Assembly (NCBI GenBank): GCA_945877765.1
Contig: CAMDWQ010000003.1
Coordinates: 52,168-116,167, forward strand
DNA from: Candidatus Omnitrophota bacterium
GTDB taxonomy: Bacteria > Omnitrophota > Gorgyraeia > 2-02-FULL-51-18
Direction of reading: 5' to 3'
DNA length: 64,000 bases
Numbering within the stretch: position 1 is the first letter of the stretch; each line of letters opens with the position of its first letter. The notes under the pieces were generated by a model that ran no database searches, was not told the DNA's origin, and worked only from the letters and a program-made list of their open reading frames with translations. Positions 46,420-64,000 of this stretch are shown one piece after another. Both the position numbers and the translations under genes were made by a program.

Positions 46420-46469
46420 GGTACCTCCTTAATAATACTTTTTTAATAGATCCCTCGACTTTGCTCGGG

Positions 46470-46493
46470 ATGAATTTGCTTTGGCAAATTCAT
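46470..46493 (-). promoter_or_regulatory. Perfect 10-bp stem / 4-nt loop hairpin overlapping the mcsB stop codon, in the mcsB-clpC intergenic region
   Basis: atgaatttgc-tttg-gcaaattcat. It is not followed by a U-tract, so it is not an obvious intrinsic terminator. Confidence 0.4.
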
Positions 46494-47542
46494 TTGCCTT
46501 CAAGGCGGCGGCGAATCAAATTCGCACGCTTCACGTCTCTTTGCGAAGAACTTAAAACCTTGCCTTCAATTTTTTGCAAATGCGCCGGCTGTGTCAGAAT
46601 AAAAAGCTCATTCACCGCGCGCCGGTCAATATCCGCCAAAAGACCCATATCGACACCCAGGCGGACCATCGACAGTAGCGTCAGCGTCTCCTTGGTGTTG
46701 ATGATGTGAGCGCTTTTGAGTGTGCCGCTGGAACGCCAGATTTTATCCTGCAAAAGATCGCGATTTTGTTTCATCAAAGTTTTTCGCGCATTCTCCTCGT
46801 GTCCTATGACCTGGCGGATGATTCTCTCAAGATTATCAATCACATCTTCTTCAGCTGTGCCCAGCGTCGTCTGATTTGAAATCTGAAAAAAATTACCTTC
46901 CGCCTCGGTGCCCTCACCGTACAAACCGCGCGCCGTCATCCCCAATTTTGTAATCGCTTGCAGTACGCGTGTAATCTGTTTGGTCATCACCAAAGACGGC
47001 AGATGCAGCATCACTGACGCACGCAATCCAGTGCCCGCATTGGTGGGGCAGGCAGTCAAATAGCCCCACTCATCACTAAAAGCAAACTTAAGACGCTTAT
47101 GAAGCGAATCATCCAAGCGATTGGCAATCCGCCAGCATTCCTGCAAATTAAAACCCGACTGCATCACCTGCACACGCAAATGGTCTTCCTCGTTGATCAT
47201 GACGCTGACGACTTCTTTGTCTCCGATCATGACCGCCTTATATTCCGGGTGCACAATATGCTCGCGGCTAATCAAATGTCTTTCCAAAAGAAACTGCTTA
47301 TCCACATCATCGACTTCTGCCATCGGCACCAAAAGGCCATTTTTGAGAAACTCCATGCTTTGGGCCGCTTCGGACAAGAGATCCATGGTTTCTTTCTGCT
47401 GCTTCTTTGCCGCCCAATGGGAAAAAGGGAAATCTGCCAAATTGCGCGCCAGACGTACCCGCGAGCTCATAACAATGTCCGAATTAGGGCCAGTGCCTTT
47501 GAGCCACTCGCAAGTTTGTTTTAAAAGAGAGTCCACTTTCAT
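46490..47542 (-). CDS. mcsB: Protein arginine kinase McsB (ATP:guanido phosphotransferase domain)
   Basis: WGYLTACPTNAGTGLRASV phosphagen-kinase active-site motif; 350 aa. Confidence 0.85.
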   Translation of the reverse strand: MKVDSLLKQTCEWLKGTGPNSDIVMSSRVRLARNLADFPFSHWAAKKQQKETMDLLSEAAQSMEFLKNGLLVPMAEVDDVDKQFLLERHLISREHIVHPEYKAVMIGDKEVVSVMINEEDHLRVQVMQSGFNLQECWRIANRLDDSLHKRLKFAFSDEWGYLTACPTNAGTGLRASVMLHLPSLVMTKQITRVLQAITKLGMTARGLYGEGTEAEGNFFQISNQTTLGTAEEDVIDNLERIIRQVIGHEENARKTLMKQNRDLLQDKIWRSSGTLKSAHIINTKETLTLLSMVRLGVDMGLLADIDRRAVNELFILTQPAHLQKIEGKVLSSSQRDVKRANLIRRRLEGK

Positions 47543-47544
47543 GT

Positions 47545-48087
47545 TTAGTTTTTATGTTCCTTAATTTTTTTCTCCAAAAATTTAATTTTATCCCGCAGGG
47601 AGGCAGCCTCTTCAAATTCCTCGCGCTTTACCGCCTTCTGGAGCTCAGCTCGCACTGCCACGAGCTCATCGTGAAGTTTGTAGGAAACTTTCATTTCTTT
47701 AGTAAATTCAGGATTCGGCGTCTTTCCCAGATGTTGATTGGACCCATGAATTCTCTTTAAAAGCGGCGTCAAGCTGGCTTTAAACGCGGTATAACATTGG
47801 CTGCATCCCAAGCGCCCCACTTTTTTAAAATCTTCATAAGTCAGGCCGCAATTCTGGCACTTCGCTTTGGGGGCGATGACAGCCGTGGAGCCGACAGCAG
47901 AAGCCGGTGTTTGCGCTTCAACATCAGAAAGCGCTGCCAGTAAATCCGCGATACCAAAATGCTGCTCAGCATCGGCGCCCTTCTGTTTGGCGCAAATTTC
48001 GCACAAATTAAGTTTGGTGATCTGATCGTTAACGATCTCGGTTAGATGCACCGTTGATTTATTTTTACCGCATTCGTCGCAGAGCAA
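47545..48087 (-). CDS. mcsA: McsA-like activator (zinc-finger plus UVR domain protein)
   Basis: CDECGKN ... CEIC and CQNCG ... CSQC zinc ribbons, plus a C-terminal UvrB/C motif. Confidence 0.75.
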   Translation of the reverse strand: MLCDECGKNKSTVHLTEIVNDQITKLNLCEICAKQKGADAEQHFGIADLLAALSDVEAQTPASAVGSTAVIAPKAKCQNCGLTYEDFKKVGRLGCSQCYTAFKASLTPLLKRIHGSNQHLGKTPNPEFTKEMKVSYKLHDELVAVRAELQKAVKREEFEEAASLRDKIKFLEKKIKEHKN

Positions 48088-48983: not shown

Positions 48984-49652
48984 TTAAGACCATTCACGAG
49001 TGACTAAATTCCACACGCGATCCGCAATGCCGGCAATCTTGTCATCGTGCGTCACCATGACGAGCGTCTTTTTTTCTTCTTGAAACAGTTTTCTCAAAAG
49101 CTCAGTGATCTCTTGAGCCATGTTCGGATCCAGATTACCCGTTGGCTCATCACAAAACAAAATCTTGGGGTCATTCATTAACGACCGAGCAATCGCCACC
49201 CGCTGCTGCTCGCCCCCCGACAATTCTCCGGGAAAATGAGTCGTCCGCTGCCCGAGCCCCATCCGGTCCAACAGAAGCTCTGCCCGCTTCTTTGCCTTAC
49301 CGCCGTCTCTTGTTTTACCGGCTATCCATGCTGGCAACATCACGTTTTCCAGCGCCGTAAACTCAGGCAAAAGGTGATAAAACTGAAACACAAAACCAAC
49401 ATTGCGGTTAATCCAAAGAGCCCTATCGGTTTCACCGAGTAAGCTCAGCTCAATGCCTTCCAACTTCACGCGTCCCTGCGAGGGCCGATCCAACCCTGAA
49501 AGTAAATTCAAAAGTGTTGTTTTCCCCGACCCTGAAGGACCCAAAATAGCCACCGCTTCACCGATTTTCACCGAAAAAGAGACGTCTTTTAAGATCGTCA
49601 ACTGCCTGTCACCATCCCAGTATACCTTGCCCAGACCTGACGCTTCAATCAT
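48984..49652 (-). CDS. lolD: Lipoprotein-releasing system ATP-binding protein LolD
   Basis: [11 protein letters not shown] Walker [16 protein letters not shown] signature; immediately follows the lolC/E permease. Confidence 0.8.
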
Positions 49653-49669
49653 TGTTTAGCTCGAAGCAT

Positions 49670-50851
49670 CTATTCGTACCGCAACGCCTTGACTGGATCA
49701 AGTCTTCCCGCCACAAATGCCGGATAAAAAGCAGACACAAAACTTAAAACCACGGCAACCGCGATCACCCAAAGCGTATCCGATGGGTTCATTTTGACGG
49801 GGAGCCTATCGATATAATAAATTTCCCTGGGCAGCTCAACAAACGAGTATTTTTTTAAAATCCAGCAAACGCCGGTACCCGCCAGCAAGCCGCTCCCCGC
49901 ACCCAGAAGCCCCAGCACAAGCCCATCCATTGCAAAAATTTTAACAAGGCTAATTGGCGGCGCCCCCAGCGCTCTCAAAACACCAATATCCTTGGTCTTG
50001 TCCATCACCAGAATTGTGAGGCTTCCGGCGATGTTTAGACTAGCGACAAGAATAATTAAAGCCAAAATTAAAAACATCACCGTCTTTTCAAGCTTTAGCG
50101 CCGAAAAGAGCGTGCGATTCATATCCATCCAAGTGCGTACCTGGTAAGGATAACCAAAAAATCCGCGGATTCTTTTTTTTGCCTCTTCGGCATGATCCGC
50201 ATCTTTCAAATAAACCGAAAGGCCGCTCACCTGGCCGGTCCTATTAAAAAATTTCTGCGCGTTGGGCAAATTGATAAAAATAAGATTGGAGTCGTATTCG
50301 TACATCCCGGTAGTAAAAATCCCCTCAACGACCAGAGGTACCGGCTTGTCCATCGTCTGCGTTGCCAGCCGCACCTTCGAACCTATTCGCAGACCCGCGC
50401 TGTGCGCTAATTCGGAGCCAATCACCACGCCATCCGCTTTTTCTGAGAGAGTGCCTTCTTTGACGTACTGATAAAACCGGGAAACTTTTCTTTCTCGGGC
50501 AGTATCAATCCCGCGCACCATGACGCCTGTCCCCCATTCACCCGATTGAAAAAGCGCTTGCCCTTCTACGTAGGGCGCAATGCCGGCCGCAATCCCAGCT
50601 TTTTCAAGCTGCTGCGTCACCGCGGCGGCTTCGCGGAACTCTCCCTCTTTTTCAATCACCAGATGAGCGCGAAGCCCAATGATACGCTCTTTCATATCCT
50701 GATCAAAACCATTCATCACCGCTAACACCACAATCAACGCTGCCACGCCCACCGCGATCCCAATTACCGAGATCGTGCTCACGACTCCCACAAAAGGATG
50801 CCTGCGCTTCGACCAAAGATAGCGCTTGGCCACCAACCACTCAAAACTCAT
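49670..50851 (-). CDS. lolC: Lipoprotein-releasing system permease LolC/LolE (FtsX/MacB-type)
   Basis: FtsX-like 4-TM topology with a large periplasmic loop; RYLWSKRRHPFVGVVSTISVIGIAVGVAALIVVLAVMNGF. Confidence 0.8.
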   Translation of the reverse strand: MSFEWLVAKRYLWSKRRHPFVGVVSTISVIGIAVGVAALIVVLAVMNGFDQDMKERIIGLRAHLVIEKEGEFREAAAVTQQLEKAGIAAGIAPYVEGQALFQSGEWGTGVMVRGIDTARERKVSRFYQYVKEGTLSEKADGVVIGSELAHSAGLRIGSKVRLATQTMDKPVPLVVEGIFTTGMYEYDSNLIFINLPNAQKFFNRTGQVSGLSVYLKDADHAEEAKKRIRGFFGYPYQVRTWMDMNRTLFSALKLEKTVMFLILALIILVASLNIAGSLTILVMDKTKDIGVLRALGAPPISLVKIFAMDGLVLGLLGAGSGLLAGTGVCWILKKYSFVELPREIYYIDRLPVKMNPSDTLWVIAVAVVLSFVSAFYPAFVAGRLDPVKALRYE

Positions 50852-52311
50852 TCTTTTTGCGCCTTCATCTGCGGGAACAAAATCACCTCACGAATCGACG
50901 GCTGGTTGGTCAACACCATCACCAGGCGGTCAATGCCTATACCCAACCCCCCGGCCGGAGGCATGCCATGCTCTAAGGCTAAGATAAAATCCTCATCAAT
51001 CGTATTCGAGGACGCTTCCTTGCCCTTGTCCTTTAATTCTTCTTCAAAGCGGAGCTTTTGCTCGATGGGATTATTTTGCTCCGAATAGCCGTTGGCCAGT
51101 TCCATGCCTCCGATATAGAGCTCAAACCGTTCACTTAAAGAAGGATTGTTCGGGTTACGGCGCGCCAGCGGTGAAAGTTCGGCAAAATAGTCCGTCACAA
51201 ATACCGGGCGAATCACACCGGCTTCTTTGGAGGAAGCGGGGTCCAAAAGATCCGCGACAAGATTAATAATCTGAGTCCGCGAAAGGTTTTTGCCCTCCAC
51301 CTTGACGCCTTTATGCTTCAGCTTCTCAATCCACACCTCGGTGTCGTCCTCGGGGCCTATATCGAATGATTCTTTCATGAGCCCAGCAAAAGATACTCTT
51401 TCCCAATGAGAAAGATCGAGAGTTTTTTCGCCGTAAGGTACTTGGAGCGTCCCAAGGACTTGTTGCGCCGTCTCTTTGATTAATCGTTCGGTAAGATCCA
51501 TCACGTCGTTGACGTCATGATAAGCCGTATAAACTTCAATCATTGTAAATTCAGGATTGTGCCGCGTAGAAATACCTTCATTGCGGAAACTTTTATTGAT
51601 CTCGTAGACTTTATCAAAACCGCCAACGAGAAGTTTTTTTAAATAAAGTTCGGGTGCCACCCGTAAAAATAAATCCATCCCCAGCGCTTCGTGGTGTGTC
51701 TTAAACGGCTTTCCCGCGGCACCCCCGGGAATCGAATGCATCATTGGCGTCTCCACTTCCAGATAATCCAGCTCATCGAGAATGCGGCGGATGGAGCGAA
51801 TGATCTGGGAGCGTTTGATAAAAATGCCTTTGGCTTCTTCGTTGGAAATTAAATCCAGGTAACGCTGGCGATACCGCACCTCGGTATCCTTAAGGCCATG
51901 CCATTTTTCCGGCATCGGACGCAAGCTTTTGGCGAGCATGGCAAACGACTGAACACGTATCGTGATTTCACCAGTTTTTGTTTTAAAAAGCTCTCCCTCA
52001 ATCCCGACGATATCCCCGATATCAGTCTGTTCAAAAAGCTTCCAGCCGTCCTCGCCGAGATTTTCGCGTTTGATATAGAGCTGAATACGGCCTGTTTCGT
52101 CTCTTAAATCACAAAAAATTGTTTTTCCCATGAGGCGGATAGAGGCTAGGCGGCCAGCGGTGCGAGTTTTTTTATTTTCCTCAAAAGCGCTGACAATAGC
52201 GGCAATCATACCATCTTTGAGAAATCTCCCGCCAAAAGGATAGACTCCCAAAGCCTCGATAGCCTGGAATTTTTTAAAACGCTCTTTGAGTAAATCGTTG
52301 GGTTCATTCAT
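50848..52311 (-). CDS. lysS: Lysyl-tRNA synthetase (class II)
   Basis: OB-fold N-terminal domain plus class II motifs (FRNEGISTRHNPEFTMIE, GGLGIGIDRLVM). Confidence 0.9.
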   Translation of the reverse strand: MNEPNDLLKERFKKFQAIEALGVYPFGGRFLKDGMIAAIVSAFEENKKTRTAGRLASIRLMGKTIFCDLRDETGRIQLYIKRENLGEDGWKLFEQTDIGDIVGIEGELFKTKTGEITIRVQSFAMLAKSLRPMPEKWHGLKDTEVRYRQRYLDLISNEEAKGIFIKRSQIIRSIRRILDELDYLEVETPMMHSIPGGAAGKPFKTHHEALGMDLFLRVAPELYLKKLLVGGFDKVYEINKSFRNEGISTRHNPEFTMIEVYTAYHDVNDVMDLTERLIKETAQQVLGTLQVPYGEKTLDLSHWERVSFAGLMKESFDIGPEDDTEVWIEKLKHKGVKVEGKNLSRTQIINLVADLLDPASSKEAGVIRPVFVTDYFAELSPLARRNPNNPSLSERFELYIGGMELANGYSEQNNPIEQKLRFEEELKDKGKEASSNTIDEDFILALEHGMPPAGGLGIGIDRLVMVLTNQPSIREVILFPQMKAQKE

Positions 52312-52380
52312 CGCGGCATCACCGATTTTTTTCCATAACCCATTGGTTTTAAATTTGTTATGGAATAAAGTTAAGAAATT

Positions 52381-52409
52381 ATTATAAATGGCTCTTCGGG
52401 GGATGTCTA
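52381..52409 (-). promoter_or_regulatory. Putative sigma70 promoter of lysS (TAGACA, 17 nt, TATAAT), followed by a leader hairpin (52331..52365)
   Basis: Minus-strand reading: TAGACA tcccccgaagagccatt TATAAT, ~63 nt upstream of the lysS ATG. A perfect 9-bp inverted repeat ttccataac/gttatggaa lies in the leader. Confidence 0.45.
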
Positions 52410-52435
52410 TTAATTAATTAAGCGGATTTAAACTT

Positions 52436-53986
52436 TTATAACCGAGAATAGCGGTTTGGCTTGTTGGCCTGGCGCCAGGAAAACCAAAGTAGAGCCGCGC
52501 ATACAAGAAGAAACCAGTCCCCAAGCAGGCGGTACAAAGAAGTGCTTTTGCGCAAAAAAATGCCTTGTGTCTGGTGACCCGTCACCATGATCTCCTTGCC
52601 TCGGTCATTCACCGACCCGACCACTTCGCCGCTGGCGGAAATAAAACAAGAAAAACCTGTATTGGCCGAGCGAATGACCGGCACACGGTTTTCCACCGCC
52701 CGGAAAACGGAAGCTTGGGCGTGCTGGTAAGGAGCGGCTGTGTTCCCAAACCAAGCATCGTTGGTGACGTTGACCAAAAAGTCAGCGCCTTTTTTGACAA
52801 AATCACGTACCAGGCTAGGAAACATGTCCTCATAGCATATCAACACCCCAAAACGGGCTGTCAGATAATTTTGAGGAGCTCTAGGCTTTAGCACAAAAAT
52901 TGATTTCTCCTGTCCGGGAGAAAAGCGGCCAATCACCACCAGGTGGCGGATAAAACCTAATAGGGGTTCGAAAGGCAAAAACTCGCCGAAAGGCACAAGG
53001 TGTGTTTTGCTGTAGCGCTGGCTTTCTTCTCCGCTGGGACTAAAGAGGATCGTGCTGTTATATGAGCGAAGCCCCTCCTCCAGCCCGCCCAGCGTCGGGA
53101 CGCCGACGAGTGTCGGTGTATTTGCACGCCGTATCGTGCTGCGAAGGTGCGCCGCCATGACCGGCTCGTCCTCAAAAAAACCAGGAAAAGATGTCTCGGG
53201 CCAGACAATCAGATCCGATGCTTCATTGGCAGACATCAACGTCAGGCGTTTGTATTTTTCAAAAATAATACCGCGAACCTTCGCATCCCATTTTTGATCC
53301 TGAGGAATATTCCCCTGCAAAACAGAGACGCGAAGTGACGGCTTTAAATCGCGCGGTTCCCATTCCTTCATTTTTAGAAAACCATACAAATAAACTACAG
53401 CAAGAACTGCTGCGGCCGCGTACAGGCAACCAAGCGCAATTTTTTTGTAACTCAAAAACTGATAAAAAAGAACGTTTAAAAAAAGAAGCAAAAAAGAAAC
53501 TCCCCATACGCCCGCAACATCCGCGACCTGGATAAATAGTACGTTTTTCCATTGGCTATAACCCAAAAGCGCCCACGGAAGTCCGCTAAACAACCAACCC
53601 CGAACCCACTCCAACAAAACCCATAAAGCCGCCATCGTCAACGCCGCGCGCACCGGTCCCGCTTCCAAACCGCGCGACTTTTTTGAAAAAAACTGCGCAG
53701 AATAAAAACCAAACAAAGCAAAATAAAGACTTAAGTAAATGACCAGGAGAATAAAAGCAAAAATATTAACGTAATTAAGCCAATACATAGTGATGGCAAA
53801 AAAAAGAATGCCCAGCACCAATGATTGAAAAACCACCCTCCCCCGGCTTTTGTTCTCCAGGGAAAAAAAATAAGGGATGAAGGCAAAGAAGGAGAGAGGC
53901 CACAGGAAACTAAAGTGGTAGGGTAGCGCTAGAAGCAGCGCCGAAACGACGACTGCCGCAAAATCACGGATTACTGGCCGTGACAT
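52436..53986 (-). CDS. lnt: Apolipoprotein N-acyltransferase
   Basis: N-terminal multi-TM region plus C-terminal CN-hydrolase domain (VICYE ... catalytic Cys context). Confidence 0.85.
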
Positions 53987-56532
53987 TTTTTGTATTTCTT
54001 GCTACTCCCACATGGACAAGGATCATTTCGACCTACTTTTTCATCGGCGGGCACTGTTCTCGCGGAAACCGGAGCAGGCGCCGGCATGGTGCTGCTCTCA
54101 TCGTCTGGCGCGGATACTCTTTTTAAAATAGAACCCGCTTCCGGGTGTAAAAATTGAAGGGGTGCCGTTTTTTTCTCTTTAGGCTCTTCCTTTAATTTCT
54201 CAGGATCCATTGCCTGCATGCGAAAAATAAATGACAAGGCCTCTTCCTTGATCGTGTCCACAAGAGTCTGAAAACCTCCGAAGGCTTCCCGCTTGTATTC
54301 AACCAACGGGTCTTTTTGGCCGTAGGCTCGCAGGCCAATTCCCTCACGTAAATTATCCATTACCCGCAAATGATCTTTCCATTTATTATCGACAATATCT
54401 AAAAGTATCATTCGTTCTAAATGTCTCAAAGATTCAGCGCCAATCTCATTTTCTTTTTGCTCATAAGCTGCCTTCGCTCGTGAAATCACCGCCTCGGTAA
54501 GGACGCTTCCTGTATCCGATTCCAACCCCTCCAAAGAAATCGGCAGCACTTTTCGCACTGTCTCTGAAAGAGTTTGGAAATAACCCTCTTCGGAGGCTGG
54601 AACGCTTTCCACCAGCACCGACGCAATCTCGTCGATCATGCTCAGGTAGTGCTCTTTAAGATTTTCACCTTCGAGTACTTTTTTACGCTCAGCATAAATG
54701 ACTTCGCGCTGGCGGTTCATGACGTTGTCATATTCCAGAAGCTGCTTACGAATATCAAAATTGCGGCCTTCGACGCGTGTCTGCGCATTTTCAATAGCTC
54801 CGGAAATAAAAGGATGCTCGATTTCCTGCCCCTCTTCCATGCCGAGTTTTTGCATAAGACCCCCAATACGGTCCGATCCAAAAATTCTCAGCAAGTCGTC
54901 TTCCATTGAAAGATAAAAACGAGAAGATCCGGGGTCTCCCTGGCGGCCCGAACGTCCACGCAGCTGATTGTCGATGCGCCGCGCTTCATGGCGCTCCGTC
55001 CCGATCACATGCAACCCGCCAACCGCCTGCACCCCTTCGCCTAAAACAATATCCGTTCCGCGGCCGGCCATATTGGTTGCAATCGTGACGGCGGCAGACT
55101 GGCCAGCTTGCTTGATGATTTCAGCTTCCATTTCGTGGTATTTGGCGTTGAGCACTTTGTGCAGCACATTGGCACGGCGTAAAAGCGAAGATAGGCGCTC
55201 TGATTTTTCAATGGAAACCGTCCCCACAAGAACCGGCTGTGCCTGTTTATGACACTCGATAATCTCCTGGACCACCGCATCAAATTTTTCCCGCTCCGTG
55301 CGGTAGATGCGATCAGGGTAATTTTTGCGGATCATAGGGCGGTTGGTGGGGACAGAAACAACGTTGAGTTTATAAATCGTAAAAAATTCCTGCATTTCAG
55401 TAAGCGCAGTTCCGGTCATCCCCGCCAGCTTCGAATACATGCGAAAATAATTTTGGAATGTCACCGTCGCCAGCGTCTGATTCTCTTCCTCGACTTTCAC
55501 TTTTTCTTTGGCTTCAAGTGCCTGGTGAAGGCCATCGGAGAAACGGCGTCCCGGCATGAGACGTCCGGTGAATTCATCGACAATGAGCACTTCTCCGTCC
55601 TTGACGACATAATCCACATCAATTTTAAAAATGGCATGCGCACGAAGCGCTTGATTGACGTGATGAACCAATTCCACATTGGAGGGGTCATAAAGATTTT
55701 CAACGTTGAGAAGTTTTTCGATCTTGATATTTCCCTTTTCGGTCAGCGCCACCGAGCGCGTTTTTTCCTCGATTTCAAAATCCTCACCTTTGACAAGATT
55801 GGGGATAATTTTATCGATGGAATAATATTTATCGGTCGATTCATCGCTGGGGCCGGAAATAATCAGAGGGGTGCGGGCTTCGTCAATCAAAATGCTGTCC
55901 ACTTCATCGACGATAGCATAGTTTAGCTCACGCTGGACACGCTGTCCGATACGACGCACCATGTTGTCGCGCAGAAAATCAAAACCAAATTCGTTGTTGG
56001 TGCCATAAGTGACGTCGGAATTGTAGGCTTTCTGCCTGTCGGTTGGGCTTGAGTTGTGCTGGACAACTCCGATGGTAAGCCCCAAAAACTCATACACGGG
56101 CCCCATCCATTCGCGGTCGCGGCGCGCCAGGTAATCATTGACGGTGACGACATGCACGCCCTTGCCGGTGAGCGCATTCAAATACACGGGAAGCGTTGCC
56201 ACGAGAGTTTTTCCCTCACCGGTGCCCATTTCAGAAATCTTTCCTTCATGCAGCACCACGCCGCCCATCATCTGGACGTCAAAATGGCGCATTTTCAAAA
56301 CACGCGTGGAGGCTTCACGTACCACCGCAAAAGCTTCAGGTAAAATTTGATTTAGCGTCTTGCCATTTTTTAAAAGATCGCGGAAATAGTCTGTCTTGGC
56401 TTTCAGCTGGTCATCCGAAAGTTTGGAGATTTCGGGTTCAAACGTATTGATTTTTTCAACCGTAGGGCGTACCCGCTTGAGGATGCGCTCATTTTCCGTA
56501 CCAAAAATTTTTTTTAAGACCCAGCCGATCAT
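53971..56532 (-). CDS. secA: Preprotein translocase ATPase SecA (with C-terminal Zn-binding [14 protein letters not shown])
   Basis: [20 protein letters not shown] ... DEAD-like motor motifs ... C-terminal Zn finger. Confidence 0.95.
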
Positions 56533-56547
56533 CGATTTTTTCCTTTT

Positions 56548-57646
56548 TTACTCTCCACCCAGACTTCTTAAGTAGGCCTCAATCAATCCTTCTAAATCGC
56601 CGTCCAATACTCCCGCGGTGTCCGACGTTTCATAATCGGTCCGGTGATCCTTCACCATCTGATACGGGTGCAGGACGTAGGAGCGAATTTGACTGCCCCA
56701 GGAAATTTCCTGTTTTTCGCCGTAACTTTTCTTCTGCTCCGCCGCGCGCTTGGCCATTTCCTTGTCATACAAGCGGCTTTTAAGCACCTTCATCGCCGTC
56801 GCACGATTTTTAATCTGCGAGCGCTCGTTTTGACACTGGACAACCAATCCGCTGGGCATATGCGTAATGCGTACGGCCGAATCCGTGGTGTTGACTCCTT
56901 GCCCGCCCTTGCCGCCCGACCGAAACACATCAACGCGGATATCGATTTCCTTCACTTCAATATCAATGTCATCTTCCACTTCGGGAATGACTTCCACCGA
57001 GGCAAAAGAGGTATGCCGCCGCTTGTTGGAATCAAAAGGTGAAATACGTACCAACCGATGCACACCAATCTCAGACTTCAAATACCCGTACGCGTAATCC
57101 CCCTCAATCAAAAGCGTGACATTTTTCACGCCCGCTTCTTCACCCTGCAAAATATCAATCATCTCGACGCGGTACTTACGGTCCGTCGCCCATCGCGTGT
57201 AAAGCCTTAGCAGCATCGCCGCCCAATCGCAGGACTCCGTTCCACCCGCGCCTGAGTTGATACTCAAAATCACGCTATTTTTATCCAGCGGGCCGCTCAA
57301 CAATTTCTGAAATTCAAGCGTGCCAATCAACTTCGAAATTTTGTCCGTCTCAAGCTCTAGATGCTTCAGAGACTCTGCATCCTCTTCTTCGGTAATTTCA
57401 AGCATCCCCAAAAGATCTTTCAGGCCCGCGTCCAGCCTCAGATAAGACTCGGTCTGATTTTTTAGGCTTTTTAATTCCTGCATCACCCCGTTTTTTTTGT
57501 CAGGGTTGGACCAGAAATCAGGATTGGAGATTTCACCTTCCAGGGAAACAATGCGGTTTTTAAGTTTATCCACATCAAAGAAACCTCCCTAGGGCGCCCA
57601 TTTTCCCCTCGAGGTCTTTTAGCTTTTCCGTCAGGTCTTTTTTCAT
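56548..57646 (-). CDS. prfB: Peptide chain release factor 2, expressed via programmed +1 ribosomal frameshift (frame-0 ORF 57646..57575 ends at an in-frame UGA)
   Basis: Upstream frame-0 ORF: MKKDLTEKLKDLEGKMGALGRFL-stop. Slippery site: AGGGAGG uuu CUU UGA u. The +1 frame continues DVDKLKNRIV ... SPFDSNKRRHTSF ... GGQGVN (GGQ motif). Confidence 0.85.
57575..57590 (-). promoter_or_regulatory. RF2 autoregulatory +1 frameshift site (internal SD-like AGGGAGG followed by CUU UGA)
   Basis: Canonical CUU-UGA shift site, with an SD-like element 3 nt upstream, read directly from the sequence. Confidence 0.8.
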
Positions 57647-57708
57647 ATAGGGGTAAATTCTATCATCCTTGAATGGGATAGGAAACAGAAATCACTAAGC
57701 ATTTTCCT

Positions 57709-58329
57709 TCACTGGAGTTCCTCGAGCTTTCGCGAAATATAGGAGCGTATCTCTTTTTGTGGAATTCGCGCGATCCAGCGCCGCGCCTTTTTAAAACTAA
57801 AAGTCGTTGGGAAATGCAGTTCTGGAAAATACCCAAATTGCTTCTTTTTCCGGCTTGAGAGATAGAGGCAGTCTATGAGTGCTTTTTCAGGTTCCGCGAT
57901 CAAGAAACTTCCCTCACCTTTGTGCCAGTCAAAACCATCAAAAAACGACGGAGCTATTTGGTGAACAGAGAATACGCCGGATTGTGTGCGGAGAGTTTTT
58001 GTGTGAGAAAGCGAGGCTAAAGTGATTACCTGGGGTATCTGTTCCACAATCCCGTGCAAGTGAAGTGCCGTGACAAACGAGACGTAAACGCGCTGACGTG
58101 GGAACAGATAAGGAATGATTTCAAACGGAGAAAACTTTTTTTGGTCTGATGTTACCCACACACCGCGGGCTATCCTGAAGAGGAGGCCTTGTGTCGCTAA
58201 GCGGGACAGGCACTGCGTCACCGTGGAACGGGATTTTCCTGAGAGAGTTATCATCTCATGCGTCGTGAAAACAGGTCGCCCGAGCCTCTTTACAAACACC
58301 ATGATATTTCGGGGGGGAGTTGTTTTCAT
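57709..58329 (-). CDS. abiEi: AbiEi-family type IV toxin-antitoxin antitoxin / transcriptional regulator. The likely start is the Met at 58329; the ORF track extends it to 58380.
   Basis: N-terminal wHTH of the AbiEi_4 type (FTTHEMITLSGKSRSTVTQCLSRLATQGLLFRIARGVWV). Confidence 0.7.
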   Translation of the reverse strand: MKTTPPRNIMVFVKRLGRPVFTTHEMITLSGKSRSTVTQCLSRLATQGLLFRIARGVWVTSDQKKFSPFEIIPYLFPRQRVYVSFVTALHLHGIVEQIPQVITLASLSHTKTLRTQSGVFSVHQIAPSFFDGFDWHKGEGSFLIAEPEKALIDCLYLSSRKKKQFGYFPELHFPTTFSFKKARRWIARIPQKEIRSYISRKLEELQ

Positions 58330-59105
58330 GGCGCCAACTCTTCCAGAAAATGGGCCGTTTTGAGTTTGACCTCGTCCCATATTTCCGCCGAGGAATAGAT
58401 TTTTTGATCTTCGGCTCCAAGATAAGCCACGACACTGTCGCGGAACTGAGCAAACTCTACAAGGAAAATATTGTCATGAGCTGTGTTTAAAATGGTTTTG
58501 CTGACATTCACGTTTCCTTTTAGCGACTTCTCGTATTGGGTATCAAGCAGAAATAAATCAAATATATCGCGAGCCTGCAAAACAGATCGGCGCGCCAATG
58601 CCTGGATCTTTTGCTCTATGGCTGAAGGCGCATCATAATGGGGTACAAGCAAGGGAGTCATTTTATAAGAACGAAGAACCTCCGAGGACACCGGCTCGAT
58701 AACCGCGGATCCATTGGATCCCCGCCTAGAGAATTCGATTTTCGTAAAAAAATCATCCCCGCTTCGCGTCAAAAGATGGATCTTGAAGCGCTGGGTAGTG
58801 TCAGTCTGCTTGGCCTTTATAATGTCGGGCGGGACAACCTTTTCGATCCCAAAAGATTTGAGACTATCAGAAAATCCACGGGTTGAAAGAATATCCATGA
58901 CGGTTTTCTTGACCCTTTCGACTCCGACTTTTTGAATGTCCAGGTCCATGTCTTCAGAATAACGGATGCTTCGGAAGAAAAACCGTAAATTAACACCTCC
59001 CTTGAGGGCATAATCCCTCCCTTCAAGTTTCCTGCCAAACCAGCGCAGAAACTCGAGGTGAAAGACTTCTCTTATTTCAAGAAGGCTGTAGATTCTGGCA
59101 TCCAT
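58326..59105 (-). CDS. abiEii: AbiEii/AbiGii-family nucleotidyltransferase toxin (DUF1814)
   Basis: ALKGGVNLRFFFRSIRYSEDMDLDI, the hallmark KGG ... R ... SEDxDL nucleotidyltransferase motif of AbiEii. Confidence 0.75.
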   Translation of the reverse strand: MDARIYSLLEIREVFHLEFLRWFGRKLEGRDYALKGGVNLRFFFRSIRYSEDMDLDIQKVGVERVKKTVMDILSTRGFSDSLKSFGIEKVVPPDIIKAKQTDTTQRFKIHLLTRSGDDFFTKIEFSRRGSNGSAVIEPVSSEVLRSYKMTPLLVPHYDAPSAIEQKIQALARRSVLQARDIFDLFLLDTQYEKSLKGNVNVSKTILNTAHDNIFLVEFAQFRDSVVAYLGAEDQKIYSSAEIWDEVKLKTAHFLEELAP

Positions 59106-59112
59106 ATTATGT

Positions 59113-59141
59113 AGTATAATTCATTAATTAGTTAATTTCAA
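59113..59141 (-). promoter_or_regulatory. Strong sigma70-like promoter (TTGAAA, 17 nt, TATACT) whose -10 ends only ~8 nt before the abiEii ATG, giving a leaderless or near-leaderless transcript
   Basis: Minus-strand reading in the AT-rich 55-nt gap: TTGAAA ttaactaattaatgaat TATACT ataat ATG. Confidence 0.5.
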
Positions 59142-59160
59142 TACATAACTAATAAAATTA

Positions 59161-62100
59161 CTAAGCCGCAGCGCCGACAGCGATCTCGACTAAATGCGCG
59201 TAGGCGGCAATTTGCTGGAAGTCAAACTTAAGCGCTGCCACAACAAGGGGCTCGATCTTCCGGAGGTATTCTGTTTTGGCTTGAGGGTCATTAAAATCGC
59301 TTGGGATTTGGTGCAATATTTTAAATGTCTTTGGCTCCACAAGCGACACCTCATACGCGTTGGCTGTTAAAGGAGTGATGAGTCGCTTGATTTCTAAATA
59401 TTCATCAGTCCGCCGGATGCCGGCGGTCTTGACTACCGTGTCAAGAACTCGGACGATATGACCACCCTCTTTTTGGATCAGGGAAATTCCAGATTTCTCA
59501 GGGACTTCCATTTTCTCCAAGGTATCTTTGGCGGCCACTACTGACTTTAGCGCCCCTGGGGGAGCGGTCGCAAAAGATAAGCGCGGATCATCATCCAGTA
59601 CCATTTGTCCATCTTCGCGCCGCACAAATTGAACATAAATATGTCTATTTTCTAAAAAATTCATCGCTGCCCCAAGCATGTTAAGAAGCGGCCCGGACAC
59701 GCCATCAGGAAACACATCTTGCGTGACCATGTGAACTACCACGGGATCGCCATCGGGAGCACCGAGAACGATTCGCATCGTTTGCCTGACCGCTAGAGCC
59801 ACAGCCGGCACCTCCTGGTCGGCCAAAACAGTTGTCGTATGGAGCTCTTCTTGAATCGCTTTGATTTCTGCCGCACCTTGCGCGATTTCATCGGGAGTCA
59901 GCTTCACATGGCCTATTTCATTCTGATGATCCCCATAAAAAACGACAACACCCTCCTCACTCTCGTGAAGTAGAGCCAATCCATTATCAAAATCAAACGG
60001 AAAGTTTCCTGCTTTTATCGCGGCTGCGACATACATCCGGATAACGCTTTGGTCCTTGGCGTCAAGCTGACCGAGGCTAGTCAGCACCCGTCCTTCTGGC
60101 TTTCCAAAAGTCTTGGCCAATTTTTCGATGGGTGTACCTTCGTCCGCCTCAACCAGAAGCTTTCTTTTGGGATCAATCGACACATGTACGGCACTCGCGC
60201 CCATTTTTAATCGCAATTCCTTGTCGGTTGAATAATATCTGGGCCATGGGTTGCTTGCTGGAATAGTAATCGCCAACCGAGCGCCGTGTGGCGGAGGGTT
60301 GATCTCATTCATCGTCTTGTCTAGCAACCCGGAATCAGTTGCTTTCAAGATAGTCCTAAGACGATTTTCCGCCTCGCCAAGAGAGATACGCTTAGAAGCA
60401 TCAGCAGCAGTCAAATCGTAGATCAATTCAACCAACCCTGATTTTCTCAAAACATTCACAAGCATATTTGTGATATCAGCTATCAACATACTTCCTAATC
60501 CAAAAGTATGGAATGCACCTTTTTCGGACGCTATAAAAATTATTAAAATTGATCTGCCGAAACTATAGGCATCAAGAGACTTCTCGGTCACATCACCAAG
60601 AGACTCGGGGGAAGCGTATAGATTGGTACGTGCATTGCTGAGTCGCTTGCCCACCTTCCTCAAACTAAGAAAGTCAATGATCCAAAGCTTAAGCTCATCA
60701 TTAAAAATTGCATTTGATGGCTTCACGTCGCCGTGAACAAAACCAAGAGTATGCAACTCTTGAAGTTTTGCCGCCCAAGCAATAAGCAACTGGAGCACGG
60801 AACGAAGTGTTAGAGACTCCAAATTTTTGCTCTCAAGATCTTTGAGCCTGGGAACATCCGAAACAAAAAAATCTCTTCCATTGAATTTTCCTACAGCAAC
60901 GATATTTTCCCAATCAATCAACTGACTGCCCTTGACGGCGCTAACCCGGCGAAATCTCAGATAAACAAGTGCCTCTTGCCTTATTTGAGCATTGGATTCT
61001 GGTGTCCGCGCGATTTTATACGTCAGATTCCCTTTAGAGAAAATCTCCCCAGTCCCTCCCCACCCAACGTCTTCTGCATCCGCTGGAATATCATCCAAGA
61101 AAGGAATCTGGGTCATAAGGGCGATCTTTTTCATAGACGGCACTTTGATAACTCTTTGCGGAGGACCTAAGCGTGTCGCCAGGTCAGTGGGTTTCTCCTC
61201 CGCATCGTTGTTCCCACTTTTCGCAAGCCGCGCGCCCGAATCTTCATCCTCTTGGGATTCATCAACATCGATGATTCGCCTCAAAGCAATCTTTCGCTCA
61301 GGCTCGGTTTTTGTTTTATCAAAAACAACGTATTTAAAACCTAACCACGAAAATTCGATACGAGTCGCTATGCCCGTAATCTCCTCGCCATTCGTTAAGG
61401 TAATGGTGATTGGTTTTCTAAAACCCATCACCCGAAGCAATCTTTGAAGTTTAGTGGCATTTTCGTCCCAATAATCGATTAGTCTTATCTTGGGCGCTTG
61501 CACAGTTACAGAATCATTCTCAAAATTGGTCTTACCAAATATATATTTTTTCTTAAACAATCTATCGAACAACTCAAAAAAAGAATCAATTGGCGAAAGC
61601 CCCAGGTTCTCAAGCCGTAGCCTATTCAAGGCCTCGCCAACAAAATCTGAATCAGTAGCCCTCCAGACATCGCGAACTCGCCACAAGCTTACCGATCGAA
61701 GCCTGTCGTCTCCTTGAATCTCCAAAAGAATCTGCATTCCAAGCAGGCTCGACATAAAACGGATAGGAATACCAATAACTTTAGCGCCAAAAGGAACCGT
61801 AGTCAGAACCACTGGAAGCTGCTCGTAAATCATCTCTTGTAACCGCTCTTCAATTGTCAGCTCAAAATCTTCGCTTGCCAGCCGCGCCCCACCCGATTCG
61901 CCCATTGAGCGGGTTTTAGCATTGTCAATAATAAGCGGCGTAATCTTCAGCTCATTAAGAGGTGTTTGTTTTGAGGTAGACATGAGTCGATTGAATGGCC
62001 AACGATTGGTGGGTGCCAGCCTCGCCCCTTCGACACGCAGCTTCGCCACTTGCTCGGGACCCATCTTCGCTTTGCTTAGCCTTGCCCCGTTGGCACGCCC

Positions 62101-64000
62101 ATTAACCTGGGGCGCTGAGAGTCCACTGTTCGAGAAAAAGTGCTCGTCTGATTTTTGTTTAGCAAACAGGAACCATGCCTGCAGGGCATTTTTTTCCATG
62201 CCATTATTGGAGACACGTTTAAATATATAAAATGCTATCTGAACTATACTTTTCAAGGCCTTGATATAGCGCGCTGGGGGGATTGGTGTTTCGCCCATGA
62301 CCGGTTCAAGAGAACCCGGATCGCGGAATGGAAAAAATGAAAAATTAAGATTATCCGGCATTGTGACCTCTGTGTATCTATTTTTAAATAAAAAACCATG
62401 ATAATTCACCATGCGCTCAACGAAGTCCGTCATATAATTATTTATGCGCTCATCATCTCCGATTGCCTGCGGATACATCGCCCTCAAAAGGATTTTAACT
62501 TCGTCCGCGCTTTGATCATTCCAAGCTTCCTCTAAGGTTAGGGTGGACATGCCTCGTAATATCCTCACGCTCACATAGTTTGTTTTTCCGCTTAATCGAT
62601 TGTAAATCGGGTGAGTTGCTACGGTATGGGGATCCAATAAGTTGGCGTCGTAATCATTCATTTGTTTCTGACGATGTTCGATCACGCTAAGCTCTTCTAG
62701 CCCCGCCAATCCATAGCCTACGGCGTATCCTCCTGCATGGTCACCCAAAACCATGATGGACTGATCAAATTCATTAAATGAAAAAAAGTGGCCGGCAGTC
62801 AAATCATTATTAGTTGAAAAATCTTGAAGCTCATTTAAGGGAATAAAAGAGCCCGTGCCTTTCCACTCAATAGAAAGAGAATCATTTGTATGGAGAGAGC
62901 CTTCCTTCTTTAATATATCCAAAAGTTCTTGATTGGTGAAAGAGTGGGGTTTTTGGATATCGGTGATGTTTTCAACCTCATCTAAAAGGTTTTGTGTTGT
63001 TTCAATTAATTGTCCAGAACTTGTCGAAAATGTCTTAAAGCCCGGAATCGTGAAAACACGCGAGGATTTATATTTTTGGGACCCATCATCAGCAGTGGTT
63101 TGAATGAAACGCACGAAACCTTTTATTGTCATGGGTTTGCCGTCGCGCCCAAGCACGGGAGTTAAGTTCATTTCTTGACGTACCTCTTCCCCCGTTAGCC
63201 TGTTAACGCTGCCATTGCGAACGTCGTAAATAGCGGGTGATTTTGTACCCTCTTCTTCAATGAATGGAACGGGAAGCAAATCACCGGTATAAAGATTAAA
63301 TGGTCCTTTTCCCGACGAGGACCGCATAAGCATGTACTCCGCTGGTTTCCAGATCACCCACGACTCAACGCCGGAAGAGACTCGAAGCCGCCCGTCGCTA
63401 GTAGCGAAGGCATTAATCAGGCGATGCTTTGATACAATTTTATCCATGCGTTCATTATGCCCATTCACCCAAGACTCAAGCTCGGCTGAACTCTTTCCAT
63501 CTAATATTATTTCCGGCAGATCGTACTCATCCAAACTTTCCTCAGCATCAGCGGCCATCCTCGCCCCCTGCCCCGCCGGGACAAGCTCTCTTTGTGGCGT
63601 AGGAGCTGGGACTGCTGGCTCTGGCTTCGGAACCGGAGTCGGGTGCGGCACAGGTGTGGGTGGACTGATTGGGACGTGCACGGGATCGACGCCTGGCTCT
63701 TCTTGGGGAATACCGGGTTTACTTGAAGTGGGAGAGGCTTGAAGAGCAAGCCGGGCGGCTGCGGCAGAACCTGTGGTTTGATTAAGCTTGGCTTGGAAGG
63801 CTGTTTTTAAATCTGGCTGATGGAGTTCCAAAGTATACTGCACGGCGTCCAGTTGATAGATTTTTTCTGCAGGGACTTCCCCATTCACGAATCCTTGGGC
63901 GAGCGCAGTGATGTATCTCACGGTGGCGGACTGGGGATCATTTATTTCAGAGGAGTTGATCAATGGGTCAAAACGCAAGTCGGGTACTATCACGGGATTG
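59161..64000 (-). CDS. Very large multidomain protein (>1,610 aa). The N-terminus may lie beyond the window end. It contains a Pro-rich linker, GARL(A/S) repeats and a eukaryotic-like Ser/Thr protein-kinase catalytic core (approx. 60500..61200).
   Basis: Single uninterrupted ORF. Kinase motifs: LGFVHGDVKPSNAIF (HxDxKPxN catalytic loop), IIDFLSL (DFG-like), LYASPESLGD (APE). Sits directly upstream of the abiE pair. Confidence 0.8.
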   Translation of the reverse strand, partial: NPVIVPDLRFDPLINSSEINDPQSATVRYITALAQGFVNGEVPAEKIYQLDAVQYTLELHQPDLKTAFQAKLNQTTGSAAAARLALQASPTSSKPGIPQEEPGVDPVHVPISPPTPVPHPTPVPKPEPAVPAPTPQRELVPAGQGARMAADAEESLDEYDLPEIILDGKSSAELESWVNGHNERMDKIVSKHRLINAFATSDGRLRVSSGVESWVIWKPAEYMLMRSSSGKGPFNLYTGDLLPVPFIEEEGTKSPAIYDVRNGSVNRLTGEEVRQEMNLTPVLGRDGKPMTIKGFVRFIQTTADDGSQKYKSSRVFTIPGFKTFSTSSGQLIETTQNLLDEVENITDIQKPHSFTNQELLDILKKEGSLHTNDSLSIEWKGTGSFIPLNELQDFSTNNDLTAGHFFSFNEFDQSIMVLGDHAGGYAVGYGLAGLEELSVIEHRQKQMNDYDANLLDPHTVATHPIYNRLSGKTNYVSVRILRGMSTLTLEEAWNDQSADEVKILLRAMYPQAIGDDERINNYMTDFVERMVNYHGFLFKNRYTEVTMPDNLNFSFFPFRDPGSLEPVMGETPIPPARYIKALKSIVQIAFYIFKRVSNNGMEKNALQAWFLFAKQKSDEHFFSNSGLSAPQVNGRANGARLSKAKMGPEQVAKLRVEGARLAPTNRWPFNRLMSTSKQTPLNELKITPLIIDNAKTRSMGESGGARLASEDFELTIEERLQEMIYEQLPVVLTTVPFGAKVIGIPIRFMSSLLGMQILLEIQGDDRLRSVSLWRVRDVWRATDSDFVGEALNRLRLENLGLSPIDSFFELFDRLFKKKYIFGKTNFENDSVTVQAPKIRLIDYWDENATKLQRLLRVMGFRKPITITLTNGEEITGIATRIEFSWLGFKYVVFDKTKTEPERKIALRRIIDVDESQEDEDSGARLAKSGNNDAEEKPTDLATRLGPPQRVIKVPSMKKIALMTQIPFLDDIPADAEDVGWGGTGEIFSKGNLTYKIARTPESNAQIRQEALVYLRFRRVSAVKGSQLIDWENIVAVGKFNGRDFFVSDVPRLKDLESKNLESLTLRSVLQLLIAWAAKLQELHTLGFVHGDVKPSNAIFNDELKLWIIDFLSLRKVGKRLSNARTNLYASPESLGDVTEKSLDAYSFGRSILIIFIASEKGAFHTFGLGSMLIADITNMLVNVLRKSGLVELIYDLTAADASKRISLGEAENRLRTILKATDSGLLDKTMNEINPPPHGARLAITIPASNPWPRYYSTDKELRLKMGASAVHVSIDPKRKLLVEADEGTPIEKLAKTFGKPEGRVLTSLGQLDAKDQSVIRMYVAAAIKAGNFPFDFDNGLALLHESEEGVVVFYGDHQNEIGHVKLTPDEIAQGAAEIKAIQEELHTTTVLADQEVPAVALAVRQTMRIVLGAPDGDPVVVHMVTQDVFPDGVSGPLLNMLGAAMNFLENRHIYVQFVRREDGQMVLDDDPRLSFATAPPGALKSVVAAKDTLEKMEVPEKSGISLIQKEGGHIVRVLDTVVKTAGIRRTDEYLEIKRLITPLTANAYEVSLVEPKTFKILHQIPSDFNDPQAKTEYLRKIEPLVVAALKFDFQQIAAYAHLVEIAVGAAA

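Follow-up and report, generated by a model that had tools for sequence, protein, structure and literature searches.

A tag-delimited giant modular protein with a kinase module, encoded beside an AbiE pair in a Candidatus Omnitrophota genome

A stretch of 64,000 nucleotides from a Candidatus Omnitrophota bacterium (contig CAMDWQ010000003.1, positions 52,168 to 116,167; here called the window) ends within a giant open reading frame (ORF) that carries a Hanks-type kinase core and lies beside the genes of an AbiE abortive-infection pair. The locus raises the question of what such an ORF encodes: a sequence-only reading had proposed a phage-defence cassette or, alternatively, a secreted effector. 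Judged from its sequence, the giant ORF is most likely the tail end (the last 1,612 residues or more) of a far larger modular protein from a very rare family, which shares a module, boundary tags of five residues, and an exclusion of cysteine with three other giant proteins, P0016, P0017, and P0018. We regard it as an even call that the ORF encodes the C-terminal end of a giant effector array, exported and organized like a polyprotein, with the tags as lineage-specific processing sites and the kinase as one cargo module.

Module architecture and pentapeptide tags

The giant ORF was located on the minus strand, where it extends from the window edge at 64000 to a stop codon at 59161-59163 and contains 1,612 sense codons uninterrupted by a stop. 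The length of at least 1,610 codons given in the sequence-only reading was therefore confirmed; that reading had, however, taken the C terminus for the open end, whereas on this strand the window edge cuts the N terminus. Neither a stop nor a start codon was found upstream, and the first GTG in the ORF listing was at 63993. An independent Logan assembly was 100% identical across 49161-63583 and its contig broke at 63583, within a Pro-rich linker, and an ENA assembly from a second strain matched at 99.5% identity.

The pentapeptide GARL[AS] was present in the ORF in five copies, at residues 638, 658, 704, 922, and 1239, and every copy was at a module boundary. In addition, a variant, GARMA, was found at residue 145 and a degenerate form, AARLA, at residue 81. 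In 2,000 composition-preserving shuffles, the number of GARL[AS] copies expected by chance was 0.006-0.016, and no further copy was found elsewhere in the 64-kb window in any of the six frames. The repeats of this kind that had been noted earlier are thus five in number and are strict delimiters between modules. Tag pairs bracketed module A (145/638), module B (704/922), and the kinase (922/1239), and the C-terminal module began at the tag at residue 1239. The features of the ORF were as follows.

59161..64000, minus strand: giant ORF, C-terminal 1,612 codons plus stop; N terminus beyond the window edge; 0 Cys
63568..63999, minus strand: residues 1-144, the end of the preceding module, with AARLA (63745-63759) and the Pro-rich linker (63595-63717)
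63553..63567, minus strand: delimiter GARMA (residues 145-149), which opens module A; its aligned counterparts are GARLA 3567 in P0016 and RSEVR/RSEMR in P0017/P0018
62089..63567, minus strand: module A (residues 145-637), the sole module common to all four giants
61876..62088, minus strand: three delimiters, GARLS (62074-62088), GARLA (62014-62028), and GARLA (61876-61890), with mini-segments of 20 and 46 residues
61237..61890, minus strand: module B (residues 704-921), an orphan
61222..61236, minus strand: delimiter GARLA (residues 922-926), directly after the acidic linker ESQEDEDS
60286..61236, minus strand: kinase module (residues 922-1238), with the Hanks-type core at about 60382-61065
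60271..60285, minus strand: delimiter GARLA (residues 1239-1243), preceded by NEINPPPH
59164..60285, minus strand: C-terminal module (residues 1239-1612, 374 aa), an orphan

The Pro-rich linker reported previously was present at residues 95-135 (PGIPQEEPG...PAPTP).

Tags that likewise exceeded chance were found in all three relatives, and their type differed between lineages.

Window ORF: 1,612 aa (partial); tag GARL[AS] plus GARMA and AARLA; 5 + 2 copies; 0 Cys
P0016: 6,230 aa; tag GARLA (exact); 13 copies; 1 Cys
P0017: 2,985 aa; tag R[SA]E[VL]R; 8 copies; 2 Cys
P0018: 3,071 aa; tag RxE[MFS]R; 7 copies (6 under the strict pattern used in the shuffles, 7 under a looser one); 3 Cys

The copies expected from shuffles ranged from 0.006 to 0.08 across the four giants, and when pentamers were counted with no prior pattern, the tag came out as the commonest one in the window ORF, P0016, and P0017, three of the four giants. 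Each tag was private to its lineage and was missing from the other giants and from six frames of the flanking DNA, save for one chance GARLS in contig L083. Conservation was confined to the five residues, and the flanks were not conserved in sequence; they were linker-like in composition, with a P/G/S/E fraction of 0.36-0.38 upstream of the tags versus 0.26 overall and a depletion of hydrophobic residues. Within the tags, codons varied synonymously (AGG, CGG, CGT, CGC, and CGA for Arg; CTG, TTG, CTA, CTT, and CTC for Leu), and the window ORF contained no DNA repeats, with self-BLAST of its visible part revealing no internal repeats; selection therefore acts on the peptide. For the same reasons, an origin of the tags as DNA-level repeats was rejected, and a role as internal ribosome-binding or start signals was rejected because the codons vary and the spacing does not fit. 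Exposure of a Gly for N-myristoylation was also rejected, since it is inapplicable to the lineages with RxExR tags.

Blocks of homology between the giants started precisely at tags: residue 145 of the window ORF corresponded to residue 3567 of P0016, and residue 1242 of P0017 corresponded to residue 1575 of P0018, with the modules next to these tag-anchored blocks being unrelated between proteins. Module A was flanked by the local tag in all four giants, of the GARLA type in two and of the RxExR type in two. Tag type tracked the relatedness of module A, which was 35% identical between the window ORF and P0016 (GARLA) and 39% identical between P0017 and P0018 (RxExR); such tracking would be expected of a site that coevolves with its reader. 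Closely spaced tags also occurred outside the window ORF, with its mini-segments of 20 and 46 residues, as doublets 20 aa apart in P0017 and 9 aa apart in P0018. In P0016, a 68-nucleotide (nt) linker repeat with 90% identity (L083 18345-18412 and 26856-26923) ended exactly in the GARLA codons, and residues 2800-3566 comprised two tandem paralogous modules with a tag between them (z 22.7). The linker repeat and the tandem paralogues are apparent traces of module duplication at tags.

Giant relatives, module A, and signs of export

To identify relatives, residues 1-921 of the window ORF were used as the query in an exhaustive HMMER scan that covered 1.84 billion representative proteins. Four matches were obtained, of which three were real and all three were giants: P0016 (E value, 8.6e-49), P0017 (9.1e-22), and P0018 (2.5e-12). 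The matched part was limited to query residues 144-567. The fourth match, P0019, an FN3-like repeat protein, was rejected as a spurious low-complexity match. A metagenome scan with the module A alignment recovered only the known loci, including contig L087, which was identical to P0016, and a genome-contig scan with the N-terminal 600 aa of the window ORF found no relative.

In an all-versus-all comparison of modules, module A was common to the four giants and an N-domain of about 500-800 aa was common to the three full-length ones, while the remaining modules were unique to each protein. The unique parts included a WD40 propeller, a weak methyltransferase match, and an HExxH module in P0016; a Hint domain in P0017; and two HExxH modules in P0018. 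Module A aligned locally across the giants with z scores of 34-96, was conserved across genomes of 46-66% GC, and contained the conserved motifs E[FW]KGxG[SA], GxGxxGxEE, YxSxR, and N...DxG. No match to module A was found in Pfam, NCBIfam, or PDB sequence and profile searches, and its AlphaFold2 model was poor (predicted local distance difference test [pLDDT], 41.6). The earlier statement that the non-kinase regions match nothing thus held for residues 1-144 (no homologue among the 1.84 billion proteins), for module B (nothing in the same exhaustive search, nor in Pfam at E ≤ 10), and for the C-terminal module, and failed for module A, which matches three giants. Similarly, the C-terminal sequence belongs to no recognizable family (Pfam, NCBIfam, and PDB searches, even at E ≤ 10), as had been stated, and it comprises 374 residues after the last GARLA, not about 450.

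The N-domain contained the invariants D75-x-H77, E105 (28 residues farther on), and H473 in GGxH, and the pattern QDAH...E...GGxH was present in three of three relatives. TIKI-superfamily peptidases such as RRSP have a 2His/2Glu site with a reported His-to-Glu spacing (PMC6254334). The N-domain invariants echo this site, a resemblance that may serve only as a lead, and Pfam, NCBIfam, and PDB profile searches lent the N-domain no support.

The window ORF encoded no Cys in 1,612 residues, against a Cys content of 0.92% in the remaining 49 proteins from the window (P ~3e-7), and the full-length relatives had only one to three. Exclusion of Cys is a known trait of exported bacterial proteins. Sec-type signal peptides were typical in P0016 and P0017 and were found in P0018 from an upstream alternative start. 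At residues 2043-2110 of P0018 (L086 16100-16300), 30 residues past a tag, there was a near-consensus Tat signal, SRRGFILK plus a hydrophobic stretch (MSRRGFILKAGVGIGAAAFA), followed by an HExxH module; this internal signal could be functional only at a new N terminus. Directly after the last tag of P0017 (residues 2799-2985; L084/L085 18400-18958), a Hint/intein N-terminal splicing domain scored above the cutoff of TIGR01445. The 3' end of the P0017 gene is uncertain, as the L084/L085 contigs end about 100 nt past its stop codon.

The C termini of three of the four giants were also alike, ending in ...AVGAAA-COOH (window ORF), ...AIGSAA (P0016), and ...AVKAAA (P0018), a pattern of A[VI][GK][SA]AA, with xAA-COOH shared by all three; P0017 deviated, with its Hint domain at the contig end. 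These nonpolar xAA termini resemble those recognized by tail-specific proteases or ClpX. The tails after the last tag were of similar length (374, 385, and 358 aa in the window ORF, P0016, and P0018, respectively). Homology of the C-terminal modules themselves was rejected, since similarity beyond the last residues was not significant (z ~1.2).

The kinase module and its genomic neighborhood

Within the kinase module, Pfam Pkinase (PF00069) matched residues 1075-1156 with 32.0 bits (gathering score, 31.7; E value, 1.1e-7), a marginal pass. The catalytic motifs comprised GWGGTG (residues 979-984), the beta3 Lys in TYKIAR, the alphaC Glu in IRQEAL, HGDVKPSN (1089-1096), DFL (1109-1111), SPE (1130-1132), DAYSFG, and the subdomain XI Arg in ASKRIS. 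In alignments to PDK1 and to a bacterial serine/threonine kinase (STK), the set of catalytic residues was complete, with the variants HGD (non-RD) and DFL, and the Hanks-type core recognized earlier was in this respect upheld. Single-sequence AlphaFold2 prediction of residues 923-1612 gave a poor model (pLDDT, 35). Weak profile matches to MkoA, PD-T4-6, MAD6, LegK1, and LanL covered the catalytic core only and were far below the family cutoffs: the PADLOC kinase matches (MkoA, PD-T4-6, and mad6) had E values of 1e-10 to 1e-7, with MkoA matched at positions 130-283 of 1112, and NCBIfam MAD6 scored 23.9 bits against a cutoff of 460. In tblastn searches of phage and plasmid collections, only kinase cores were matched. 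Taken together, the kinase is divergent, outside any curated family, and probably active. The proposal of a Stk2-like or other known defence kinase was accordingly not borne out, as no family matched over its full length. A similarity between the kinase module and the N-domain of P0018 (z 6.5) was rejected because the alignment was gappy and unconvincing.

The GC content at third codon positions (GC3) of the giant ORF was 0.46, versus about 0.52 in neighboring genes. The kinase module (60300-61200) had the lowest GC3 within the ORF (0.39-0.44 versus about 0.52 in the neighbors), which hints at a foreign origin of this cargo module.

On the minus strand, the giant ORF was followed by AbiEii, AbiEi, prfB, secA, lnt, lysS, and lolCDE-like genes. 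The features immediately downstream, together with the codon that differed in a second strain (L001), were as follows.

59105-58326, minus strand: AbiEii (PF08843, 49.1 bits; cutoff, 22.5)
58380-57709, minus strand: AbiEi (PF13338, 30.2 bits; cutoff, 25; PADLOC E value, 3e-25)
59650..59652, minus strand: codon E1450, GAA in the window and TAA in L001, which truncates the C-terminal module

The AbiE pair (57709-59105) was arranged toxin first, the opposite of the canonical order abiEi-abiEii, and an alternative AbiEi start (206 aa) would give an ATGA overlap at 58329-58326. The giant gene had been described as placed before an abortive-infection pair; the adjacency on the same strand was correct, with the order being toxin and then antitoxin. 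A sigma-70-like promoter site (10 of 12 matches) was found at 59141-59113, within the 55-nt spacer between the giant ORF and AbiEii. The AbiEii/AbiEi pair, with both members above their Pfam thresholds, constitutes a complete type IV toxin-antitoxin system and would be an accessory module independent of the giant ORF.

No conserved neighborhood was found around the relatives. The genes flanking P0016 were those for RNR and OGG at one end and for aconitase and deoxyhypusine synthase at the opposite end; P0017 had a two-component system and CofD as neighbors; and around P0018 were an S11 peptidase, mlaDEF, and a fragment of a dockerin-type giant gene. AbiE, recognized defence genes, and other neighbors from the window were all absent within 10 kb of the three relatives, and the large neighboring genes in L086 lacked the delimiter motif. 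Phylum-wide synteny with housekeeping genes was thus not observed, and the proposed defence-island cassette was not supported, given the unrelated housekeeping contexts of the relatives and the promoter-like site of AbiE itself. Among 80 prfB loci from other phyla, none had a relative of the giant ORF or of AbiE.

Comparison with the second strain across 53041-62568 revealed 44 substitutions, 43 of which were in secA and lnt and mostly synonymous. From 56234 to 62568, a block that includes the start of secA, prfB, abiE, and 3.4 kb of the giant gene, the sole difference was the G-to-T change at 59652 that creates the stop at codon 1450. The pattern is suggestive of a block that recently recombined or swept, together with a knockout allele.

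The wider gene array comprised 55 ORFs of at least 150 aa, all on the minus strand, with a cumulative GC skew that fell steadily, and no tRNA was found in the window. The 27 of these 55 ORFs that were scanned were housekeeping genes, including those for the lipopolysaccharide (LPS) core and lipid A, topA, leuA, an ilvB-like gene, tRNA synthetases, mcsAB-clpC, mla, and ispD. The best match of prfB across 185,579 species genomes was 57% identical (an Omnitrophota metagenome-assembled genome), followed by one from Lentisphaerae (56%); this low identity points to a poorly sampled diderm lineage. The prfB gene (57571-57646, minus strand) contained a programmed +1 frameshift site, with a Shine-Dalgarno-like GGGAGG followed by CTT TGA at 57580-57575; its true start is the ATG at 57646-57644, and because of the frameshift, the ORF listing shows only the downstream frame of 341 aa. 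An mcsA-mcsB-clpC operon (43930-48087, minus strand; UVR-motif protein, ATP:guanido phosphotransferase, and ClpC) was also present, which alongside LPS, Lol, and Mla genes is unusual for a diderm. Two apparent fusions were observed on the minus strand: a ThiS-like domain (residues 3-66) before topoisomerase I at 14374-16584, in an ORF that overlaps its neighbor by about 200 nt and may have a wrong start, and a lipid A acyltransferase joined to an ELM1-like domain at 8976-10937.

Competing interpretations and comparison with known systems

If the giant ORF belongs to an exported and processed effector array, then its precursor would be exported through Sec, and a signal peptide and a conserved domain of about 500 aa would be expected beyond the window edge. 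The pentapeptides would be recognized by a coevolving peptidase, for which the N-domain and module A are the likeliest candidates; these two would form the machinery for processing or translocation, and the other modules would be interchangeable cargo. Cleavage would separate the modules and release a protein cocktail that includes the kinase, either at the cell surface or into a prey or host cell. The internal Tat signal of P0018, the Hint autoprocessing domain of P0017, and the 68-nt linker repeat of P0016 hint at processing of this kind. Since a kinase requires ATP, an exported kinase cargo would act inside another cell; a predatory or parasitic lifestyle would fit such delivery, which is speculation. 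The secreted effector that the sequence-only reading had offered as its alternative is closer to the evidence, and it underdescribes a tag-delimited giant modular protein; with that sharpening, the effector reading is plausible. More boldly, and only tentatively, we propose an undescribed bacterial polyprotein system, in which a Sec-exported precursor with a five-residue processing code and a coevolving peptidase encoded within the family would let an uncultivated, possibly predatory or parasitic bacterium deliver into the cells of its prey or host a shuffled mix of enzymes, the eukaryotic-like kinase among them, as well as short peptides.

Several observations weigh against an exported and processed array. 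Cleavage at the tags is something that we infer and none was observed, and docking or modification is an alternative role that such a short, invariant peptide could have. No recognizable peptidase was present in the visible 1,612 residues, and because this part has no Cys, a cis-acting protease of the CPD, C39, or caspase type is excluded there. Profile searches (Pfam, NCBIfam, and PDB) returned nothing for module A and the N-domain, and module A had no invariant His and no detectable peptidase signature. The AlphaFold models (pLDDT, 35 and 41.6) provided no evidence of a fold, the kinase included. Transmembrane (TM)-like segments of the relatives were at inconsistent positions relative to module A, and no secretion system was found in the 64-kb window. 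The N terminus of the window protein, with any signal peptide and N-domain, is outside the window, so the earlier remark that no signal peptide is recognizable has no bearing on the true N terminus. As the family comprises only four members, the covariation of tags and module A is a comparison of two versus two. Finally, the nonsense mutation of L001 in the last module may indicate a dispensable or decaying gene.

Four other explanations were considered. An uncleaved giant protein, periplasmic or surface anchored, whose modules work tethered and whose tag is a docking motif, an Arg modification site, or a hinge, would account equally well for the module and tag architecture, and we consider it rather unlikely. 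In its favor, no protease was identified, uncleaved giant multienzyme proteins have been reported for Omnitrophota, and the TM segments found in P0017 and P0018 could hold an uncut protein in the membrane. Cleavage is favored, however, by the tag doublets 9-46 residues apart and by the Tat-like signal past a tag; a tethered extracytoplasmic kinase that depends on ATP would lack a substrate supply unless delivered into another cell, and the wholesale switch of tags between lineages needs a dedicated reader either way. A cytoplasmic signaling or metabolic scaffold, a Rosetta-stone fusion in which tags mark fusion joints and the kinase regulates proteins of its own cell, is improbable. The kinase core is closest to ordinary bacterial and eukaryotic STKs, housekeeping genes lie all around, and the internal Tat-like signal of P0018 may be a relic of a fused gene; yet relics would decay and differ at each joint, whereas each protein keeps its tags invariant and the whole set changes between lineages, and such a scaffold leaves unexplained both the extreme depletion of Cys and the N-terminal signal peptides of all full-length relatives.

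The remaining two explanations concern the neighbors and the integrity of the gene. It is distinctly improbable that the kinase protein and AbiEii/AbiEi form one phage-defence cassette, with an abortive-infection kinase resembling Stk2, PD-T4-6, or Mokosh: AbiE and recognized defence genes are absent within 10 kb of all three homologous giant genes, the signal peptides and Cys exclusion of the family indicate export rather than cytoplasmic sensing, a promoter-like site separates the giant ORF from AbiE, and AbiE is self-sufficient as a two-gene system. The adjacency on one strand across a 55-nt spacer would be consistent with a cassette, and so would the block from the giant gene to prfB, which is identical in two strains about 1.2% apart in secA and lnt and is compatible with a recent block transfer; the PADLOC matches to MkoA, PD-T4-6, and mad6, although also suggestive, are weak and limited to a generic catalytic core, with MAD6 reaching 23.9 of 460 bits. 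Very improbable is a decaying, functionless gene or an assembly artifact. The premature stop at codon 1450 in the second strain, the break of one assembly within the Pro-rich linker, and the slightly lower GC3 (0.46 versus about 0.52) would agree with it. Against these stand 4.8 kb free of stop codons, identical sequence across independent assemblies, conservation of module A over genomes of 46-66% GC, intact catalytic residues throughout the kinase, and tags kept despite synonymous codon variation.

Among known systems, the window family is conceptually closest to the MARTX toxins of Vibrio and relatives, and the known kind to which it would belong is the modular multi-effector precursor. In both cases a giant protein carries an array of unrelated effector modules, which in MARTX are secreted and cleaved at linkers, with processing being putative in the window family, and the MARTX effector repertoire is likewise shuffled between strains. 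The MARTX protease releases effector modules by cutting exclusively after Leu in interdomain linkers (PMC2780291, PMC3153235), and sites of the form GARL|A/S and GARM|A would fit a protease of the cut-after-Leu type. In contrast to MARTX, neither RTX/glycine-rich repeats nor a C80 cysteine protease domain was found in the visible part (Pfam and NCBIfam), the full-length relatives have only one to three Cys, and the delimiter is an invariant, lineage-specific pentapeptide instead of a loosely defined site. Where MARTX proteins have a C-terminal signal for a type I secretion system (T1SS), the relatives carry N-terminal Sec signal peptides, and no T1SS gene is nearby. MARTX and the window family have no sequence homology; the searches likewise indicate no sequence relationship of the family to Rhs or to giant proteins described before.

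For Omnitrophota and other uncultivated lineages, giant proteins have been reported as very long ORFs that tile methyltransferase, kinase, and HAD domains, and their cleavage into several products has been proposed, with "information about cleavage points" lacking (bioRxiv 10.1101/2023.11.21.568195; 10.64898/2026.06.07.730766). Neither paper, when searched for terms on motifs, cleavage, and polyproteins, yielded an explicit delimiter motif. Giants of the Omnitrophota type (Archaeovorin/dockerin) exceed 10,000 residues (10 kaa) and have SecA-like and C39/S8 domains, with a cluster resembling a type II secretion system (T2SS) upstream and pilZ downstream. The window family differs in being smaller (3-6 kaa), in having no SecA-like, C39, or S8 domains in the visible part or the full-length relatives, and in having neither pilZ downstream nor a T2SS-like cluster among the 55 downstream genes of the window; it is similar in that P0018 adjoins a dockerin-type giant gene fragment.

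Viral polyproteins with 3C-protease sites and the Kex2-processed precursor Ece1, the source of candidalysin (PMC12153327), are also similar, in that a short, repeated, lineage-specific peptide punctuates a single product. In such viral and eukaryotic precursors, the recognition peptide coevolves with the protease and short peptides are freed between doubled sites. Unlike viral polyproteins and prohormone precursors, the window family is encoded by a chromosomal bacterial gene and its protease is only putative, and no comparable system for a chromosomal bacterial gene was found in the literature. Polymorphic toxins and Rhs proteins share modularity, shuffled C-terminal cargo, export, and a Hint domain, which in P0017 follows the last tag. 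They differ in that no YD/Rhs, filamentous hemagglutinin, Ig-like adhesin, or known trafficking repeats were detected in the window protein or its relatives (Pfam and NCBIfam), so that the identity with an adhesin or RHS-type protein raised earlier was not found; in addition, no immunity gene was obvious, and several cargo modules occur in series rather than as one terminal toxin. LegK1 (a Legionella effector kinase), Stk2, PD-T4-6, and MAD6 share the Hanks-type core and the full set of catalytic residues, but these are stand-alone proteins, whereas the kinase described here is a tag-bracketed module of a giant. The literature searches found no account of GARLA-type delimiters or of such bacterial polyproteins.

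The locus corrects a tempting misannotation, in which a kinase beside AbiE is read as a defence system. Furthermore, the tags provide objective cutting points in "dark" giant ORFs for structure prediction and functional tests. If the tags are processing sites, then a cleavage code would be explicit for the first time in a giant protein of bacteria, and the family would contain natural orthogonal pairs of protease and site that may be of biotechnological interest. In that case, bacteria would use the polyprotein logic of viruses, with lineage-specific sites that coevolve with their reader.

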